Origin: an uncultured Candidatus Saccharibacteria bacterium
GTDB lineage: Bacteria > Patescibacteriota > Minisyncoccia > Phycocordibacterales > GWA1-40-21
Length of the DNA stretch: 41,521 nt
Assembly (NCBI GenBank): GCA_964479775.1
Contig: CAYZNH010000002.1
Span: 1-41,521, forward strand
Direction of reading: 5' to 3'
The position numbers were made by a program, and so were the translations under genes. This document shows positions 3,801-22,892 of this stretch, piece by piece (within the stretch, counting starts at the first letter, position 1; every line of letters starts with the position of its first letter). The notes under the pieces were generated by a model. That model was given only the letters and a program-made list of their open reading frames with translations, had not been told where the DNA came from and did no database searches.

Positions 3801-3871
3801 TAAGACCGTTTGTGATATTTACCCGTTCAAATTTTAATAAATTTGTTCGGGTCCATTTCACCACAAGCGTA
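3801..3871 (-). pseudogene. Degenerate copy of the 5' half of tRNA-Arg, interrupted by a 32-nt palindrome
   Basis: taagaccgtttgtgatattt (3801-3820) and ccatttcaccacaagcgta (3853-3871) parallel gaagaccgttgtgatat/ccatttcaccacagacgca of the intact gene. They are split by acccgttcaaattttaataaatttgttcgggt (3821-3852). Confidence 0.6.
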
Positions 3872-8607: not shown

Positions 8608-8641
8608 AAAAAGGATTTTCGCTTCGCGAAAATCCTTTTTA
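8608..8641. terminator. Bidirectional hairpin terminator; its arms are identical to the arms of repeat family 4 copy F1
   Basis: aaaaaggattttcgc-ttc-gcgaaaatccttttt lies between convergent genes. Confidence 0.8.
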
Positions 8642-8666: not shown

Positions 8667-9650
8667 TTATTCTGCATCCTGTCCACGTCTGTCATGAAAT
8701 TTCTTGTGTACATCCCTTAGATGTTTATCAGTAACGTGTGTATAAATCTGTGTAGTAGCTATATTTGAGTGACCCAGCATCATCTGAACAGAACGAATAT
8801 CCGCACCATTTGAAAGTAAGTCGGTAGCAAAACAATGTCTAATAACGTGTGGTGTAACTTTCTTTGTTATACCTGCGATTGTTGCATACTTTTTTACAAT
8901 TCTTTCTATTGTTCGGTGATCAAGCCCTGTAGAATATTCTTTCTTTTCAAAGATTTCTTTTTTATCTGAATTTTTCTTATCTGAACTAACCGGCACAAAC
9001 ATTGCATCAGACATATCTTTTCTTAAATCAAGATATTCTTTAATGGCTTTTTTTGCTTCACTAGAAAGAAATACTACTCTAACTTTTCCACCCTTACCAC
9101 GAATAGAAAACTCATCCATGTGTAAATCTAAATCATTTTTCAATGAGCATAATTCCGAGACACGAAGTCCTGTAGAAAAAAGTAATTCCAAAATTGCCTT
9201 ATCACGAGCTCGTCTCTCTGAATTTTGTTCTTTATCTGGTGCTTCTAACAAACGTTTAAGTTCAAACGGAGAAACAACATCGATTGTTCTTTCATTAACT
9301 TTTGCAAGTTCTATATTTTCAGCCGAAAGAGAATTGATACCGCGACGAGTTAGAAACTTAAGAAAAGTTCTAATTGCAATCATATAATAATTTTGCGTTC
9401 TTTTGTTCATATATCCACCAGACGGAGCTTTCTGATCAAAAAGGTGATAACCCTTGGCTCCAGGTCTTCTATTTAACCAAACACGAAATTCCCTAACTTT
9501 CTCATTTGTTATATCTTTTGGGTCTTTTAATCCTGTTTGTTCTAAAAAAACACTCAAATAATGATCATAATTTTCAATAGTCCTTATGGCACGACCCCTT
9601 TCTATTTCCAAATATTCCAAGAACTGTCTTTTTAAATCAAGTAAATTCAT
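8667..9650 (-). CDS. Tyrosine recombinase, XerC/XerD-like, with lineage-specific insertions
   Basis: TGLRVSEL (box I Arg), GKGGKVRVV, HVIRHCFATDLL, LGHSNIATTQIYTHV (catalytic Tyr). There is an extra Lys-rich segment SSDKKNSDKKEIFEKKEYSTG before box II. Confidence 0.9.
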   Translation of the reverse strand: MNLLDLKRQFLEYLEIERGRAIRTIENYDHYLSVFLEQTGLKDPKDITNEKVREFRVWLNRRPGAKGYHLFDQKAPSGGYMNKRTQNYYMIAIRTFLKFLTRRGINSLSAENIELAKVNERTIDVVSPFELKRLLEAPDKEQNSERRARDKAILELLFSTGLRVSELCSLKNDLDLHMDEFSIRGKGGKVRVVFLSSEAKKAIKEYLDLRKDMSDAMFVPVSSDKKNSDKKEIFEKKEYSTGLDHRTIERIVKKYATIAGITKKVTPHVIRHCFATDLLSNGADIRSVQMMLGHSNIATTQIYTHVTDKHLRDVHKKFHDRRGQDAE

Positions 9651-9715
9651 TTATTAAGTATAATATCATAAAAATTGTGCGACATATATACAAACAAAAC
9701 CTTAATACTAACCCC

Positions 9716-9744
9716 TTGCAAAAGGTCTACAATTATGCTATCAT
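9716..9744 (+). promoter_or_regulatory. Candidate promoter TTGCAA-N17-TATCAT, placed so that rpsO would be leaderless
   Basis: ttgcaa at 9716-9721 and tatcat at 9739-9744. Only 7 nt separate the -10 from the ATG at 9752, and there is no SD. Confidence 0.4.
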
Positions 9745-9751
9745 TTCCAAC

Positions 9752-10015
9752 ATGTTAACAAAAAGCAAGAAGCAAAAAGTAATAAGTGAAGTGGCTATTC
9801 ATGATACCGATACTGGTTCAGCAGGCGTACAAGTTGCTATCCTTTCTAAAAAAATTGAGGAATTAACTAAACATTTAAAGAAAAATGCTAAAGATAATCA
9901 CTCAAGAAGAGGTTTGCTAGGTATGGTTGCAGATAGAAGAAAGCACTTAAAATATTTAGAGAAACATTCTCCAAAAGTTTACGAGTCAATAATGAAGAAG
10001 GTAGGATTAAAATAA
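9752..10015 (+). CDS. rpsO: 30S ribosomal protein S15
   Basis: MLTKSKKQKVISEVAIHDTDTGSAGVQVAILSKKIEELTKHLKKNAKDNHSRRGLLGMVADRRKHLKYL. I prefer the ATG at 9752 (87 aa, normal S15 length) to the upstream start at 9677 in the ORF track. Confidence 0.93.
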   Translation: MLTKSKKQKVISEVAIHDTDTGSAGVQVAILSKKIEELTKHLKKNAKDNHSRRGLLGMVADRRKHLKYLEKHSPKVYESIMKKVGLK

Positions 10016-10110: not shown

Positions 10111-10390
10111 ACCCTGTGTAATAAATTTTTAAATTTTATGTTTTATACATATGTATTAAAATCTAGTAAAGATAATAAACTATATGTAGGATACACAGAA
10201 AATTTAAAAATTAGATTTGAGACACATAATAAAGGTAAAGTGAAATCTACAAAAGACAGAAGACCTTTAACCATTGTATATTACGAAGCTTGTTTAAATA
10301 AAAAAGATGCTTTACATCGAGAAACATACCTCAAAACAATTTATGGTAAAAGATATATCAAAAACCGTCTCAAATCTTATTACACAGGGT
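10111..10390. repeat. 14-bp perfect inverted repeats bracketing the GIY-YIG ORF
   Basis: accctgtgtaataa (10111-10124) and ttattacacagggt (10377-10390, overlapping the last codons). A weaker outer pair is ggagtg (10085-10090) / cactcc (10406-10411). Confidence 0.75.
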
Positions 10391-10392
10391 GA
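10138..10392 (+). CDS. GIY-YIG nuclease-family protein (84 aa, domain only)
   Basis: MFYTYVLKSSKDNKLYVGYTENLKIRFETHNKG is the canonical GIY...YVG...R..H.G motif. Confidence 0.9.
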   Translation: MFYTYVLKSSKDNKLYVGYTENLKIRFETHNKGKVKSTKDRRPLTIVYYEACLNKKDALHRETYLKTIYGKRYIKNRLKSYYTG

Positions 10393-10429: not shown

Positions 10430-10951
10430 ATGTCAGTAATTAAACACAAAAATCAAAGGGTTGGAATTTTTATAGATACGCAGAATTTATATCACTGTGC
10501 AAAAAATCTTTACAATGGTGCAAAGGTTAACTTTGGACAGGTAGTAAAAGATGCTTTAGCAGGAAGATCGCTTATAAGAGCAGTCGCATATGTTATAACA
10601 ACAGAATCAGGAGATGAAAAAGGTTTTTTTGATGCGCTTGAAAAAGCAGGTATAGAAACAAAAACAAAAAATTTACAAATATTTACAGGTGGTTCAAAAA
10701 AAGCCGATTGGGATGTGGGACTTGCGGTAGATGCTATCAAACTAGCACCGAAGCTTGATACAGTGATACTAGTTTCTGGAGACGGCGACTTTATTCCTCT
10801 TGTAGAATATCTAAAAGTAAACGAGGGTTGCCAAGTAGAGCTCCTTTCTTTTGGTAAATCAACATCATCAAAATTAATAGAATCAGTTGATGATTTTATA
10901 GATTTAGATCAAAATCACAGAAAATATTTGATAGGGAATTATAAGAGATAG
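10430..10951 (+). CDS. NYN-domain (LabA/DUF88-like) putative RNase
   Basis: VGIFIDTQNLYH, AVAYV, ADWDVGLAVDAI and VILVSGDGDFIPLVEYLK. Confidence 0.88.
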   Translation: MSVIKHKNQRVGIFIDTQNLYHCAKNLYNGAKVNFGQVVKDALAGRSLIRAVAYVITTESGDEKGFFDALEKAGIETKTKNLQIFTGGSKKADWDVGLAVDAIKLAPKLDTVILVSGDGDFIPLVEYLKVNEGCQVELLSFGKSTSSKLIESVDDFIDLDQNHRKYLIGNYKR

Positions 10952-10996
10952 ATAATGTTGTAGATGTTTTAATTGTAAATACAATAAAACACAAAG

Positions 10997-11053
10997 AGGA
11001 TTTTCGCAACCTAAAACAAAGATTACTTTGTTCGGTCAAGGAGCGAAAATCCT
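10997..11053 (-). repeat. Repeat family 4, copy F1 (conserved ~35-nt palindromic core nested in a terminator stem), inverted relative to F2/F3
   Basis: aggattttcgc[aacctaaaacaaagattactttgttcggtcaagga]gcgaaaatcct. The arms equal the plain terminator at 8612-8636. Confidence 0.8.
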
Positions 11054-11080
11054 TTTGTATTTCTTATTAATAAGATTGTA

Positions 11081-11108
11081 TTGACAATGTAATTACATTG
11101 TATATACT
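11081..11108 (+). promoter_or_regulatory. Toxin-antitoxin promoter (TTGACA-N16-TATACT) overlapped by an 18-bp perfect palindrome, likely the operator
   Basis: ttgaca at 11081-11086 and tatact at 11103-11108. The palindrome acaatgtaattacattgt is at 11084-11101. A second TATAAT is at 11123-11128. Confidence 0.6.
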
Positions 11109-11137
11109 TAATATATTATCGGTATAATATAAAAAAT

Positions 11138-11407
11138 ATGAACACAACACTCCAAATTAGAATAGATAAGAATGATAAGATTCAAGCTCAAAAAATTTTC
11201 AATAAAATGGGAATGGATCTTTCAACCGGAATCAAAACTTTTATAAAACAGGTTGTTATAGACAAGGCATTACCTTTTCAACCGAGAACAGAAAATGGTT
11301 TTACACCTGAATATGAAGCTATGATTCTCAAAGAATCAGCATGGGCTAAAAAATATGCAAAGAGATACGATAGTGTAAAAGAAATGATGGCAGCATTTAG
11401 AAAATAA
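11138..11407 (+). CDS. dinJ: RelB/DinJ-family antitoxin
   Basis: TLQIRIDKNDKIQAQKIFNKMGMDLSTGIKTFIKQVVIDKALPF (ribbon-helix-helix DinJ pattern). Located 4 nt upstream of the toxin gene. Confidence 0.88.
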   Translation: MNTTLQIRIDKNDKIQAQKIFNKMGMDLSTGIKTFIKQVVIDKALPFQPRTENGFTPEYEAMILKESAWAKKYAKRYDSVKEMMAAFRK

Positions 11408-11411
11408 AATT

Positions 11412-11690
11412 ATGCCAAAGATATATCCTTCAAAACATTTCGAAAAATCCCTTAAAAAACTTTTAAAATCCGGAAATTTTGATGACACCAAACTAGAAAA
11501 AATATTAACCATACTTGAAGAAGGAGAAAAACTAGAAGCAAGACATAAAGATCATCAATTAACAGGTAATATGGCACGGTATCGTGAATGTCATATAGAA
11601 AATGATCTTTTACTTATTTATGAAATATCACAATCTGGTAATTATATAGAAGTTATTGATATTGGCAGTCATTCAGATTTATTTGAATAA
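11412..11690 (+). CDS. yafQ: YafQ/RelE-family mRNA interferase toxin
   Basis: HKDHQLTGNMARYRECHIENDLLLIYE...IGSHSDLFE matches the YafQ signature (DH.L.G....ReCHI..D.LLIY...GSHsdLF). Confidence 0.9.
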   Translation: MPKIYPSKHFEKSLKKLLKSGNFDDTKLEKILTILEEGEKLEARHKDHQLTGNMARYRECHIENDLLLIYEISQSGNYIEVIDIGSHSDLFE

Positions 11691-11704
11691 AAAATAATAT
11701 ACAG

Positions 11705-11761
11705 GGGATTTTTGCTTCCTGACCGAACAAAGTAGTCTTTGTTTTAGGTCGCAAAAATCCC
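11705..11761 (+). repeat. Repeat family 4, copy F2
   Basis: gggatttttgc[ttcctgaccgaacaaagtagtctttgttttaggtc]gcaaaaatccc followed by a T-run. Confidence 0.8.
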
Positions 11762-11764
11762 TTT

Positions 11765-11870
11765 TGTATTGTCATTCCGTTGAAAAACGGAATCCATGTT
11801 TGATTTTAATTAATGGATTCCGGCCTCCGCCGAAATGACACAACTACAACAATTACAACATCTATAACAG
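11765..11870 (+). repeat. Repeat family 3, expanded copy (TGTATTGTCATTCC...GAAATGACACAA plus an ACAA-rich tail)
   Basis: tgtattgtcattcc...nested hairpins attccg/cggaat and ggaatccat/atggattcc...gaaatgacacaactacaacaattacaacatctataaca. The tail parallels 22816-22852. Confidence 0.65.
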
Positions 11871-12008
11871 TTAAAACATAGGTATTTTTCTATATTCCAC
11901 ATTCACTATTCAATATTCTAATTCACGGGCTTGCTTGCAAGAGAGAGAGAGAGAGTAAAATACAAATATTGGAAACAACTCCAATTTTAATAATTAATTA
12001 TAAACATT

Positions 12009-12719
12009 ATGAACGAAAAAGGAGAAGGGGTTTCGATAGAACAAACAGTTGAAAAACCAACCAAAATAGAAGTTGTGTATACAAAACCAGATAATACACA
12101 AGAAACTATTGTTTTAGATTTTGAAAAAGAACTTGCTGATTTTTTAGATTTTTATAAAAAAACCGGAATAGATTTACCAGCAGATTTTGAAGATTCCATG
12201 AGAGATATATGGAATAGAAATCAAAAACAAATACAAAAAGAAATTGAAGGTAATGGTTTTGATGAAGTTTTACTTGTTCCTGGTAAAATATCTCTTGAAG
12301 AATTAGCAAAAAAAATGATTATGGGGTATGGATATCGTACAGATGGTAATTTTGCAGAAGATGGATCTTTCCGTAGTGCCATGGGTATAAATGTATATAA
12401 ATCTCGTATATTATTAGTTCACAAAGTAAAAGAACTCACAGATAGACCAGAACTTACACAGACACTAAATATTAAAGCAGAAGATATAGATTTATTAAAA
12501 GCCCTGTCACTTGAAGATTACCTTATATTCTCGAGAAAATTCTTTGAAGAAACCGGGGAACATCTAGACACAACAAAAGAAACTTGGACTTCTACTAAAT
12601 CTGCTGGTCACCTCATTTATGTAAAGTGGGGTCAAAAAAAAGAACTCTGTGTGTATTCTTCTAATATTAACTATAATAATCCTAACATTGGTTTTCGTCC
12701 TTCTTCTTGTCTTGAATAA
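12009..12719 (+). CDS. Hypothetical protein (236 aa), flanked by family 4 repeats
   Basis: Clean ORF with no recognisable family. The C-terminal NPNIGFRPSS is only vaguely reminiscent of FGE/SUMF1-type ...GFR endings, so no function is assigned. Confidence 0.65.
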   Translation: MNEKGEGVSIEQTVEKPTKIEVVYTKPDNTQETIVLDFEKELADFLDFYKKTGIDLPADFEDSMRDIWNRNQKQIQKEIEGNGFDEVLLVPGKISLEELAKKMIMGYGYRTDGNFAEDGSFRSAMGINVYKSRILLVHKVKELTDRPELTQTLNIKAEDIDLLKALSLEDYLIFSRKFFEETGEHLDTTKETWTSTKSAGHLIYVKWGQKKELCVYSSNINYNNPNIGFRPSSCLE

Positions 12720-12749
12720 ATAAACAAAAAAATATATTTGTGATACTAT

Positions 12750-12815
12750 AAAGGCGGAAAATTGCTTCTGACCGAACAAAGTAATCTTTGTTTTAGGTCG
12801 CAATTTTCCGCCTTT
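12750..12815 (+). repeat. Repeat family 4, copy F3
   Basis: aaaggcggaaaattgc[ttctgaccgaacaaagtaatctttgttttaggtc]gcaattttccgccttt. Confidence 0.8.
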
Positions 12816-12964
12816 ATTAGTAATGTTTGGTTTTTGGATAGATAGATCGGAACTCCGTTCTTATCTAAAATCTAAAAATCAGACTTAATATTAGGTATTT
12901 TTTGCCAAGGAGACGCCTTTTTAAAGATTTAAGGCCTCACCTTTTCAAAAAATACAAAAATAAA

Positions 12965-15124
12965 ATGACAAAAAAAGAATTTTCTATGGAGCTTTGTGGT
13001 AAAACACTCAGTGCAGAGTTCAATGATTTAGTAGAAAATGCGCATGGTTCAGTAATGCTTAGATATGGTGCTACAACCATTCTAGCGACTGCGGTCATGT
13101 CAAAGAATGCAAAAGAAGGGGGAGATTTCTTTCCTTTAACAGTTGACTACGAAGAAAAGTTTTATGCTTCAGGACAAATACTTGGTTCTAGATATACAAG
13201 AAGAGAAGGAAAACCATCAGATGAAGCGATACTTTCTGGAAGAATAGTAGATAGAACTATTAGACCTCTTTTTGATCAATGGATTAGAAATGAAATACAA
13301 GTTGTTATTACTGTACTTTCTCTTGATCAAGATGATCCAGATACACTTGGAGTTATTGCTGCATCTCTCGCTCTTGGAGTTTCAAAAATTCCTTTCAACG
13401 GACCAGTAAGTGCTGTTAGGGTTGGCAAACACAAAAATGATGGATTTGAAGTTAATCCAACATATACAGAAAGAGAAAATGAGGCTTATGAACTAGAACT
13501 TATTGCTTGTGGAAAAGACGGAAATATAAATATGATAGAACTTGCTGGAGACGAAGCTCAAGAACCTACTGTTATTGAAGCAATGAAACTGGCCTCAACA
13601 GAGATTGAAAAAATAAACACTTGGCAAAAAGAAGTTATCTCTCAAATAGGAGTAGAAAAAGTTTCTATTCCAGAGCCAGTAATGCCAGAATCAGTAACTA
13701 AACTTTTCGCAGATAAAATAGAACCAAAACTTGAAAGCTTTATTATGAGTGGAATTCCTGGTGGTTCAAAAATAGGGGAGATAATGAGTGAGTGGTTGAA
13801 ACTCGCCAAAGAAACTTTACCAGAAAATGAAGCAAAATTTGCAGAACATCTTTTTGAGAAAAAAGTTGATGATATGATACACGAACAAGTTCTTAAATAT
13901 GATAGAAGAGCAGACGGAAGAAAGATAGACGAATTAAGACCTTTGTTTGCACAAGCCGGCGGAATTTCTCCTGTGCTTCACGGTTCTGGAATATTCTTTA
14001 GAGGAGGAACACACATATTGTCTGTCCTTACACTTGGCGGACCAAAAGACGCACAGTTAATAGAAGGTATGGAAGAAAAAGAATCAAAGAGATTTATGCA
14101 TCATTACAATTTTCCTCCATTTTCAACCGGTGAAACAGGAAGAATGGGTGGAACAAACAGAAGAATGATTGGACACGGTGCTCTTGCAGAAAAAGCACTA
14201 CTTCCGATGATTCCTAAAGTAGAAGATTTCCCTTATACAATAAGACTTGTTTCTGAAGCCCTTTCTTCAAACGGTTCAACTTCAATGGGATCAGTTTGTG
14301 GTTCAACGCTTGCTCTTATGGATGGAGGAGTACCAATTAAAAAACCAGTCGCAGGTATTGCATCAGGTCTTATGATGGATAAAGATGGAAATTATAAAAT
14401 TCTTACAGATATTCAAGGTCCAGAAGATCACTACGGTGATATGGACTTTAAAGTTGCTGGTACAAAAGATGGTATCACAGCAATACAAATGGATGTAAAA
14501 GTAGAGGGAGTACCAATACCAGCTCTTACTGTTGCTTTCGAAAAAGCAAAGACTGCAAGGCTCCAAATCCTTGATGTAATAACAAAAGCCATACCAGAAT
14601 CAAGAAAAGAAATTTCTCCAAACGCACCCAAAATTCTTGTAATAAAAATTAAGCAAGATCAAATAGGTGGAGTAATTGGTTCTGGAGGAAAAACGATTAA
14701 AGATATTAAAGAGAGAACAGAAGCTGATATAGACATCGAAGATGATGGAACAGTTTATATTACAGGTAAAAATGGTTCCGCAGAAAAAGCTAGAGATATT
14801 ATAGAAGGAATGACACACGAATATAAAGCTGGAGAAAAATATGAAGGAACTGTTATGAGAGTTGAAGCCTTCGGAGCTTTTGTAAATATCGCTCCTGACA
14901 CTGATGGTCTAGTACATGTTTCAGAAATTGCACCATTTAGAATAGATAATGTTGGAGAATATCTAAAAGTAGGTGACAAAGTTCCAGTTGTAGTTAAAGG
15001 AGTAGATGAAAGGGAAAGGATCGCTCTTTCAATAAAAGCAAGAAATCCTGATTTCATTAAAAGAAAAACGCCTCCTACATCTCCAACCCCACCAGTAAAC
15101 CCAACAGTCCAAACAGAAATATAA
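12965..15124 (+). CDS. pnp: Polyribonucleotide nucleotidyltransferase (PNPase)
   Basis: Two RNase PH-like domains (RREGKPSDEAILSGRIVDRTIRPLF; FPPFSTGE; GHGALAEKAL), a KH domain (GGVIGSGGKTIKDI) and an S1 domain (GTVMRVEAFGAFV). I prefer the ATG at 12965 to the TTG at 12902. Confidence 0.95.
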   Translation: MTKKEFSMELCGKTLSAEFNDLVENAHGSVMLRYGATTILATAVMSKNAKEGGDFFPLTVDYEEKFYASGQILGSRYTRREGKPSDEAILSGRIVDRTIRPLFDQWIRNEIQVVITVLSLDQDDPDTLGVIAASLALGVSKIPFNGPVSAVRVGKHKNDGFEVNPTYTERENEAYELELIACGKDGNINMIELAGDEAQEPTVIEAMKLASTEIEKINTWQKEVISQIGVEKVSIPEPVMPESVTKLFADKIEPKLESFIMSGIPGGSKIGEIMSEWLKLAKETLPENEAKFAEHLFEKKVDDMIHEQVLKYDRRADGRKIDELRPLFAQAGGISPVLHGSGIFFRGGTHILSVLTLGGPKDAQLIEGMEEKESKRFMHHYNFPPFSTGETGRMGGTNRRMIGHGALAEKALLPMIPKVEDFPYTIRLVSEALSSNGSTSMGSVCGSTLALMDGGVPIKKPVAGIASGLMMDKDGNYKILTDIQGPEDHYGDMDFKVAGTKDGITAIQMDVKVEGVPIPALTVAFEKAKTARLQILDVITKAIPESRKEISPNAPKILVIKIKQDQIGGVIGSGGKTIKDIKERTEADIDIEDDGTVYITGKNGSAEKARDIIEGMTHEYKAGEKYEGTVMRVEAFGAFVNIAPDTDGLVHVSEIAPFRIDNVGEYLKVGDKVPVVVKGVDERERIALSIKARNPDFIKRKTPPTSPTPPVNPTVQTEI

Positions 15125-22639: not shown

Positions 22640-22790
22640 CCTCGAGAGATAGTATTTTTTCTGTCATTACGAGGTGGGTGTTGGGATGGGACCCAACACG
22701 CAAGACTCATTGAGAGCTTTTGTAATCAAAAGATCCAATGAGTGGACAGTCTCTGTAAGAGAGTAATCCGACGTGGTAATCCAGTGTTTT
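22640..22790 (+). repeat. Repeat family 1, short copy C
   Basis: actcattg (22705-22712) / caatgagt (22736-22743) enclose GAG-cttttg-taat-caaaag-ATC, followed by the tctc-tgtaa-gaga hairpin (22750-22762). An upstream hairpin is gtgttggg/cccaacac. Confidence 0.65.
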
Positions 22791-22852
22791 GTATTGTCAT
22801 TCCCGCGTAGGCGGGAATGACACAAATACAATAACTACAACATTTATAACAC
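22791..22852 (+). repeat. Repeat family 3, compact copy
   Basis: gtattgtcattcccgcgtaggcgggaatgacacaaatacaataactacaacatttataacac. The ATTCCC-N8-GGGAAT core is at 22799-22818. It lies about 40 nt upstream of rsmA. Confidence 0.7.
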
Positions 22853-22892
22853 ATAGAACTTTTAGCTATTCTATAGTATATTTAAACTACAA

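Follow-up and report, generated by a model that had tools for sequence, protein, structure and literature searches.

The question raised by this locus is why the same short palindrome is found inside three otherwise different hairpins, here named F1, F2, and F3, that follow one another between the genes for a NYN-domain protein and polynucleotide phosphorylase (pnp). The locus lies in the window, by which we mean the whole 41,521-nucleotide (nt) stretch analyzed (contig CAYZNH010000002.1 of GenBank assembly GCA_964479775.1, from an uncultured Candidatus Saccharibacteria bacterium). The original prediction had offered two answers, a small mobile or recombinogenic palindrome that targets terminator loops and, more speculatively, a set of attC-like cassette boundaries. 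Comparison with relatives supports the first, as we identified orthologous hairpins with plain loops of 3 to 4 nt at all three positions and, in one genome, an inverted copy. The explanation that we favor, and consider fairly probable, is that of a copy-and-insert palindromic module that has landed in the tips of hairpins.

The three copies share a 29-nt core, GACCGAACAAAGTARTCTTTGTTTTAGGT, found at 11009-11037 on the minus strand and at 11721-11749 and 12770-12798 on the plus strand (none are expected from shuffles). The genome that holds the window (654 kb, 30% G+C, labeled G000) contains just these three exact copies, together with looser relatives of the motif on contigs C11, C12, C15 (2-3 copies), C18, and C21. 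The description first given of this repeat holds in the sequence, including its arm coordinates and the inverted orientation of F1: each core is flanked by mutually complementary arms that vary from copy to copy, and the blocks that take the place of the hairpin loop measure 34 to 35 nt, namely, 11008-11042 in F1 (35 nt, minus strand, antisense relative to the genes), 11716-11750 in F2 (35 nt, plus strand, sense, with a single difference from the other two cores, in its TAGT loop), and 12766-12799 in F3 (34 nt, plus strand, sense). Each copy folds as a single long nested hairpin. F1 is located 3' of the NYN gene (10988-11062), F2 is 3' of yafQ (11698-11770), and F3 is 3' of an open reading frame, ORF236, and right behind a -10-like pnp box (12744-12822), with folding energies of -24.8, -32.6, and -41.3 kcal/mol (z = -6.2, -8.5, and -12.2), respectively. 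As the stems contain G+C and are followed, at a gene 3' end, by a T run (TTTTGTATTT after F1, TTTTGTATTG after F2, and TTTATTAG after F3), we can predict that the three are hairpins of the intrinsic-terminator type and that transcription terminates there. A terminator consensus scanner called only a plain bidirectional terminator at 8608-8640, because the loops that it allows are 3 to 8 nt long. The arms of F1, AGGATTTTCGC and GCGAAAATCCT, are identical to those of this plain terminator (8612-8636, 3-nt loop), as had been noticed, but C8 and C10, two other contigs of this genome, have plain terminators built from the same two arms, which makes the identity less special. F3 could serve two transcripts, as terminator for that of ORF236 and as 5'-terminal hairpin for that of pnp. 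Farther into the 5' untranslated region of pnp there is another long hairpin (12826-12884), kept in all genus members examined; if pnp has an autoregulatory or RNase III-type leader hairpin, this one is a more plausible candidate than F3.

Through homologs of ORF236 we reached two public contigs that are arranged in the same way. L203, the closest of the relatives found, is nearly identical to our genome (NYN protein, 100%; first 200 amino acids of the phosphorylase, 99.5%; pnp, about 92% nucleotide identity) and shares its gene order, NYN-RelB-YafQ-ORF-pnp. Each of the three hairpins has a counterpart in L203 whose arms match ours wholly or almost wholly, but which carries a 3-nt loop and no core: AACACAAAGAGGATTTTCGC-TCC-GCGAAAATCCTCTTTGTGTT at site 1, with arms identical to those of F1 (also written GGATTTTCGC-TCC-GCGAAAATCC), GGGATTTTCAC-GAA-GTGAAAATCCC at site 2, and GGCGGAAAATTAC-GAA-GTAATTTTCCGCC at site 3, the pnp leader. 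A diverged RelB-YafQ pair occupies the same place in G007, and there the hairpin that precedes relB has a plain TTC loop. Sites 1 and 2 lack the core in all the other genomes examined (L203, L201, and G007). The pnp-leader hairpin, which in the relatives compared stands directly behind a conserved TAnTATAAA box, is more variable. It is plain in G010 and L201 (TAAT loop), in G013 and G014 (GGA loop), and in G022, filled in the sense orientation in G007, filled in G006 with the core reversed relative to its conserved flanks, and absent from G001 and G018. Judged from these comparisons, the core is a presence/absence/inversion polymorphism at the tip of orthologous hairpins, and its copies are shown to appear, disappear, and flip between very close relatives.

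We propose that F1, F2, and F3 were pre-existing hairpins, terminators after NYN and yafQ and a terminator or 5'-leader hairpin before pnp, in which the apical loop of 3 to 4 nt would have been replaced by a 34- to 35-nt module of the form (T)YCTGA-CCGAAC-stem-loop-GTTTTAGG-TC, spread by copy-insertion into hairpin tips. All three local cores have an AAAG/CTTT pairing where G006 and a copy within a T-box-like leader on contig C15 have AAAT/ATTT, and the two positions that differ compensate each other. This shared derived pairing argues for copying within the locus, most simply from an older pnp-leader copy (F3), which was probably the source of those in the two neighboring terminators. Locally, the module would do nothing more than lengthen the stem of terminator or leader hairpins, so that the three copies are presumably passengers. 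Flipping could come about if the two arms of the host hairpin recombine or serve for template switching, by analogy with hairpin inversions in chloroplasts. Kelchner and Wendel reportedly described such minute hairpin-loop inversions in 1996 in chloroplast noncoding DNA, where, as between G000 and G006, the sequence between hairpin arms flips between close relatives; these inversions account only for flipping, not for the origin or spread of a core.

The motif belongs to a larger family. We searched 401 genomes of the order for the pattern CCGAAC-N10-20-GTTTTAGG, with the reversed pattern as a control, and found it in 65 of them (about 190 matches, versus about 40 for the control). Of 123 distinct matches, 104 have a variable middle that pairs into a perfect stem of 4 bp or more, compared with 3.4% of shuffles; there are 35 different stems, and G.T pairs in them are rare (2%) and symmetric. 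The commonest version is a 26-nt canonical form, CCGAACATTTTG-loop-CAAAATGTTTTAGG, found at 85 loci among 185,579 species, and every record with an informative title belongs to Patescibacteria or the Parcubacteria group. The usual form is not the singlet seen three times at our locus but an inverted doublet, GGCTAAA(AC)-hp1-(GT)TCGC followed by CCGAAC-hp2-GTTTTAGG, where hp1 and hp2 are the two hairpins (as RNA, GGCUAAAAC-hp1-GUUCGC plus CCGAAC-hp2-GUUUUAGG), with 8-bp ends CCTAAAAC/GTTTTAGG, and it sometimes occurs in tandem arrays. Stems are shared within genomes, in favor of a copy-prone element, with 30 copies of a few near-identical types in G252 and identical pairs in G203, G442, G007, and G000. 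In Rfam 15, the window gave no match at the gathering threshold, 10900-13000 gave only chance-level matches at E values up to 10, and the doublet itself had no match in 16 other loci. As a literature search by topic and by sequence words found no description of the hairpin module either, this hairpin family of Parcubacteria is apparently undescribed and uncatalogued. Elsewhere in the window (3801-3871, minus strand), a palindrome, CCCGAACAAATTT-ATTA-AAATTTGAACGGG, splits a partial copy of tRNA-Arg; its 5' half matches the motif and its 3' half differs, and it may be a decayed relative.

Among the alternatives, the one that survives best is that the module functions as RNA, as a signal for binding or processing that is connected with RNase P substrates, and that selection maintains every copy, for example, for stability or processing of mRNA 3' or 5' ends. 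We consider it unlikely overall, but several results speak for it. When 82 canonical copies were placed relative to stable-RNA genes, the end of 27 fell at offset 0 or -1 from an RNA 5' end, that of transfer-messenger RNA (tmRNA) for 12 copies and that of tRNA-Trp, -Glu, -Ser, or -Ala for 15; another 4 precede a tmRNA-like 5' end, 2 stand directly before GAGGAAAGTCC (also written GAGGAAAGUCC) of RNase P RNA, i.e., in P3, and a few abut a tRNA end on the other strand. The closing pair covaries with nucleotides 1 and 2 of the tRNA: in our own genome a doublet precedes tRNA-Phe, and its closing pair has changed to GC..GC, which matches this tRNA. The bulge and a G.U pair of the motif are strongly conserved, and a T-box-like leader contains three hairpins of the CCGAAC/GTTTTAGG type, its stem III among them. 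This leader (C15:9908-10064; L004 2909-3065) precedes a class II (Asp/Lys/Asn-type) aminoacyl-tRNA synthetase gene, lacks a normal stem I, and scores 38 bits, below the Rfam cut-off. A T-box reading of the copy on C21 was rejected, as this copy is a three-hairpin variant of the doublet unit.

Other data do not fit an element that acts as RNA. Copies nested in hairpin tips, terminators included, occur in both orientations relative to transcription (5 sense and 4 antisense). The complement of the motif is a different RNA internal loop (UAA/C instead of G/UUA), and the reverse-complement symmetry of the doublet is not explained by a function in RNA only. The orthologous hairpins of near-identical relatives do without the module, as do the tmRNA and most tRNA leaders of our own genome, and in an even sample of the order only 1 of 23 tmRNA genes had it; the distribution is sporadic, and we rejected a universal tmRNA leader. 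A leader-trailer processing stem around tRNA or tmRNA was rejected as well, because in none of 26 genes did a complementary block follow the 3' end. Compared by eye with their consensus, K-turns, loop E/sarcin-ricin motifs, UAA/GAN motifs, 11-nt receptors, and group II domain V did not fit. Under the copy-and-insert reading, too, the canonical copies may well have a role in stable-RNA precursors. Two further observations were made at stable-RNA genes. On contig C12 (74-320), the 5' end of tRNA-Ser is repeated as an 18-nt copy behind a doublet unit, and the real tRNA-Ser follows after about 105 nt, as if an insertion into the D-loop region had brought a replacement 5' end with it. Many tmRNA loci of the order (L205-L231) have some hairpin flush with nucleotide +1, whatever its sequence, and the 3' ends of several are followed by palindromes that reuse the 3' strand of the acceptor stem.

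Returning to the copy-and-insert module, several results weigh against it. About 40% of the canonical copies are flush with stable-RNA ends or sit in P3 of RNase P RNA, many of them precisely where RNase P would cut tmRNA and tRNA precursors, a placement that looks like function rather than junk. Between 14 and 26 conserved bases are identical across deeply diverged lineages, and in the G.U pair, G outnumbers A, the base that would make it a Watson-Crick pair, by about 25 to 1, a bias that points to sequence-specific recognition, which passive, enzyme-free copying would not need. We found no target-site duplication when filled and empty sites were compared, as about 34 nt simply replace the loop, and no mobilizing enzyme among the RAYT-like Y1 genes inspected (described below). 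Last, the direction of some changes is ambiguous, because the pnp leader of the closer relative L203 is empty and those of the more distant G006 and G007 are filled, so that at least one precise loss or independent gain is required.

This last point is also an argument for a second alternative, in which the core was ancestral at all three hairpins and was precisely lost in relatives, with the identity of the copies maintained by gene conversion between neighbors and no insertion activity at all. Inner hairpins are also prone to deletion by replication slippage. The plain state of sites 1 and 2 in all the other genomes examined speaks against it, as do the bursts within single genomes and the tandem arrays found elsewhere in the family, and we regard this explanation as improbable.

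The weakest alternative, largely refuted and in our opinion very improbable, is that the copies are site-specific recombination sites (attC-like, or dif/pdif-like for Xer) that mobilize the genes between them. Several features speak for it: the copies are imperfect palindromes whose inner repeats are of the AAC...GTT type and which carry a bulge of 2 nt, the inverted ones bracket a toxin-antitoxin pair (65-nt arms, 86% complementary), and a tyrosine recombinase is encoded 1.3 kb away (8667-9650, minus strand). The recombinase, however, is a housekeeping Xer-type enzyme by profile scores and synteny. It scores 243 bits with XerD and 230 bits with XerA (above the cut-off), versus 128 bits with the integron-integrase profile TIGR02249, whose cut-off is 265, and in 10 of the 13 congeners with the locus on one contig its gene immediately adjoins rpsO, with a distance of 2 kb in 3 more, irrespective of what the NYN-pnp gap contains. 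When the rpsO-pnp interval was compared among relatives, the expected variability of its content was found, with NYN-pnp gaps from 110 nt to 3.6 kb that hold different genes in different congeners, but the idea of the copies as cassette boundaries did not stand: RelB-YafQ and ORF236 are syntenic in several relatives, and L203 has the same boundaries without the core. The homologs of ORF236 are always just upstream of pnp, which indicates old syntenic genes and not freely shuffled cassettes. Besides, the outer arms of each copy are complementary to each other, which a crossover inside the core would not preserve. We conclude that the module does not mediate cassette exchange.

The structure of the copies leads to the same result. 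The attC sites of integrons carry conserved boxes (R'' and R', RYYYAAC and GTTRRRY) at their outer ends and a variable center. The copies resemble them as imperfect palindromes with extrahelical bases at gene ends, with a toxin-antitoxin pair among the flanked genes, but here the arms vary and the center is conserved, GTTTTAG does not match the RRR positions, there is no IntI, and orientations are mixed, unlike the single orientation of attC sites. The inversion of F1 had already been recognized as an argument against a classical integron, and we uphold it. As for dif or pdif, which would imply a conserved 11-6/8-11 Xer site near xer, the palindrome adjoining the recombinase gene is the ordinary terminator at 8608-8640, and the hairpin at this place differs completely between congeners, so this candidate was also rejected.

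Several known families of small repeats were compared with the module. Repetitive extragenic palindromes (REP), with their composite forms known as BIMEs and REPINs, are short, bulged, imperfect palindromes with polarity found in Enterobacteria and Pseudomonas and associated with RAYT transposases of the Y1 (HUH) type. The likenesses are the polarity given by a bulge, frequent inverted doublets in the wider family (the three copies at our locus are singlets), a similarity that is higher within than between genomes, and cotranscription at gene ends. RAYT-like Y1 genes, of about 220 to 260 amino acids, are present in many genomes of the order (L069-L083), and genes with the Y1_Tnp domain were found in 13 of the 20 genomes searched. 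We inspected 15 of them, 1 from our genome and 14 from 9 other genomes, and none was flanked by CCGAAC...GTTTTAGG. Most are flanked on both sides by a genome-specific palindrome of their own (the gene of our genome, L083, and about 8 others); at C4:35646-36317, the RAYT-like gene of our genome, the flanks are TGCCCGAGGGGAGACCTAGGGCA and its reverse complement. A RAYT/IS200-type transposase was therefore rejected as the mobilizer, as these palindromes are unrelated to the motif. Two more differences from REP are the low number of copies of the motif (about 7 to 30 per genome) and their location, which is within the tip of another hairpin or right at the 5' end of a stable RNA.

The insertion sequences IS1397 and ISKpn1 land in the loop of REP hairpins and thus share with the module the tip of a pre-existing hairpin as insertion point, but they are 0.36 to 1.4 kb long with a transposase or terminal repeats, compared to about 34 nt and no target duplication here. 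The module is not a miniature inverted-repeat transposable element, which would have terminal inverted repeats and a target-site duplication: the loop is replaced, and nothing is duplicated. Like the module, Correia elements and other cotranscribed miniature elements are palindromic inserts, small and noncoding, that lie within transcripts and can serve as terminators or processing sites. Correia elements differ by their 26-bp terminal inverted repeats and TA duplication, are not nested in hairpin tips, and have no known tie to RNase P sites. Also similar in form are the double-hairpin elements that Paquin, Laforest, and Lang are said to have described in 2000 in mitochondrial DNA of Allomyces and chytrids, very small units of two hairpins, flanked by conserved sequence, that are located between genes and within variable loops of structural RNA genes; lineage and sequence are different, and we know of no description of a link of these elements to RNase P sites. 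TIGR-Tas arrays, which need 9-nt spacers between box C (CCA) and box D (UG) (PMC12045711), were rejected, as the variable parts here are self-complementary stems and not 9-nt spacers.

We can tentatively suggest that the CCGAAC...GUUUUAGG hairpin is a new Parcubacteria-specific element, either a mobile module or an RNase P-linked leader module, although we are more inclined to doubt than to assert it. If it is mobile, its length of about 32 nt would make it the smallest bacterial mobile module known, inserted at hairpin tips and stable-RNA 5' ends by a host enzyme or an unrecognized one that reads the bulge and the G.T pair. If it is linked to RNase P, it would be a leader module common to the substrates and to P3 of the ribozyme that secondarily became prone to copying. 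Its sequence is conserved across many candidate Parcubacteria lineages, yet it comes and goes between genomes that are about 92% identical. It would be either a minimal mobile element or a participant in the processing of stable RNAs, in organisms whose RNA biology has hardly been studied. For annotation and for integron screens, the relevant point is that what looks like integron-like cassette punctuation in an ultrasmall genome of the Candidate Phyla Radiation appears to be terminator hairpins colonized by a tiny clade-specific hairpin.

The genes around the copies were assigned mostly with Pfam, which confirmed the order NYN, relB-yafQ, unknown ORF, and pnp. After the Xer-type recombinase gene come rpsO (ribosomal protein S15, 9677-10015), a small GIY-YIG nuclease ORF (10138-10392), the gene for the NYN-domain (LabA-like) protein (10430-10951), which is kept between rpsO and pnp across the genus, F1, relB (11138-11407) and yafQ (11412-11690), F2, ORF236 (12009-12719), F3, and pnp (12965-15124), all of these genes on the plus strand. 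The GIY-YIG ORF is missing in L203. A 10-bp inverted repeat brackets it (CCCTGTGTAA, 10112-10121, and TTACACAGGG, 10380-10389), and it looks like a separate small insert. A promoter-like site of relB-yafQ (TTGACA-16-TATACT, 11081-11108, plus strand) overlaps a palindrome, and the same sequence is found upstream of relB in G007 and L203. The -10-like box in front of pnp, TACTATAAA (12744-12752, plus strand), is conserved at this position in the genus and probably has a promoter role.

Homologs of ORF236 were found only in a few Paceibacteria, and its product had no match in Pfam, NCBIfam, or PADLOC that would indicate a role in defense or another function. Compared with L203, the region is a mosaic, with protein identities of 100% for NYN, 99.5% for the phosphorylase, 94% for RelB, 64% for YafQ, and 44% for ORF236, which indicates allele replacement or fast divergence inside an islet at 11412-12719. 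Upstream of ORF236, a -35-like TTGCAA and a -10-like TAAAAT (11935-11961) are separated by a (GA)n tract of 15 nt (11941-11955); the tract measures 9 nt in L203 and about 21 nt in L201, and the site could be a promoter whose strength depends on repeat length. Right after F2 (11762-11877), and at the same place in L203, there is a second repeat family, TTGTATTGTCATTCC...GGAATGACACAA, with a hairpin core ATTCCNNNN...GGAAT, also present in the window at 105-139 and 22787-22859.

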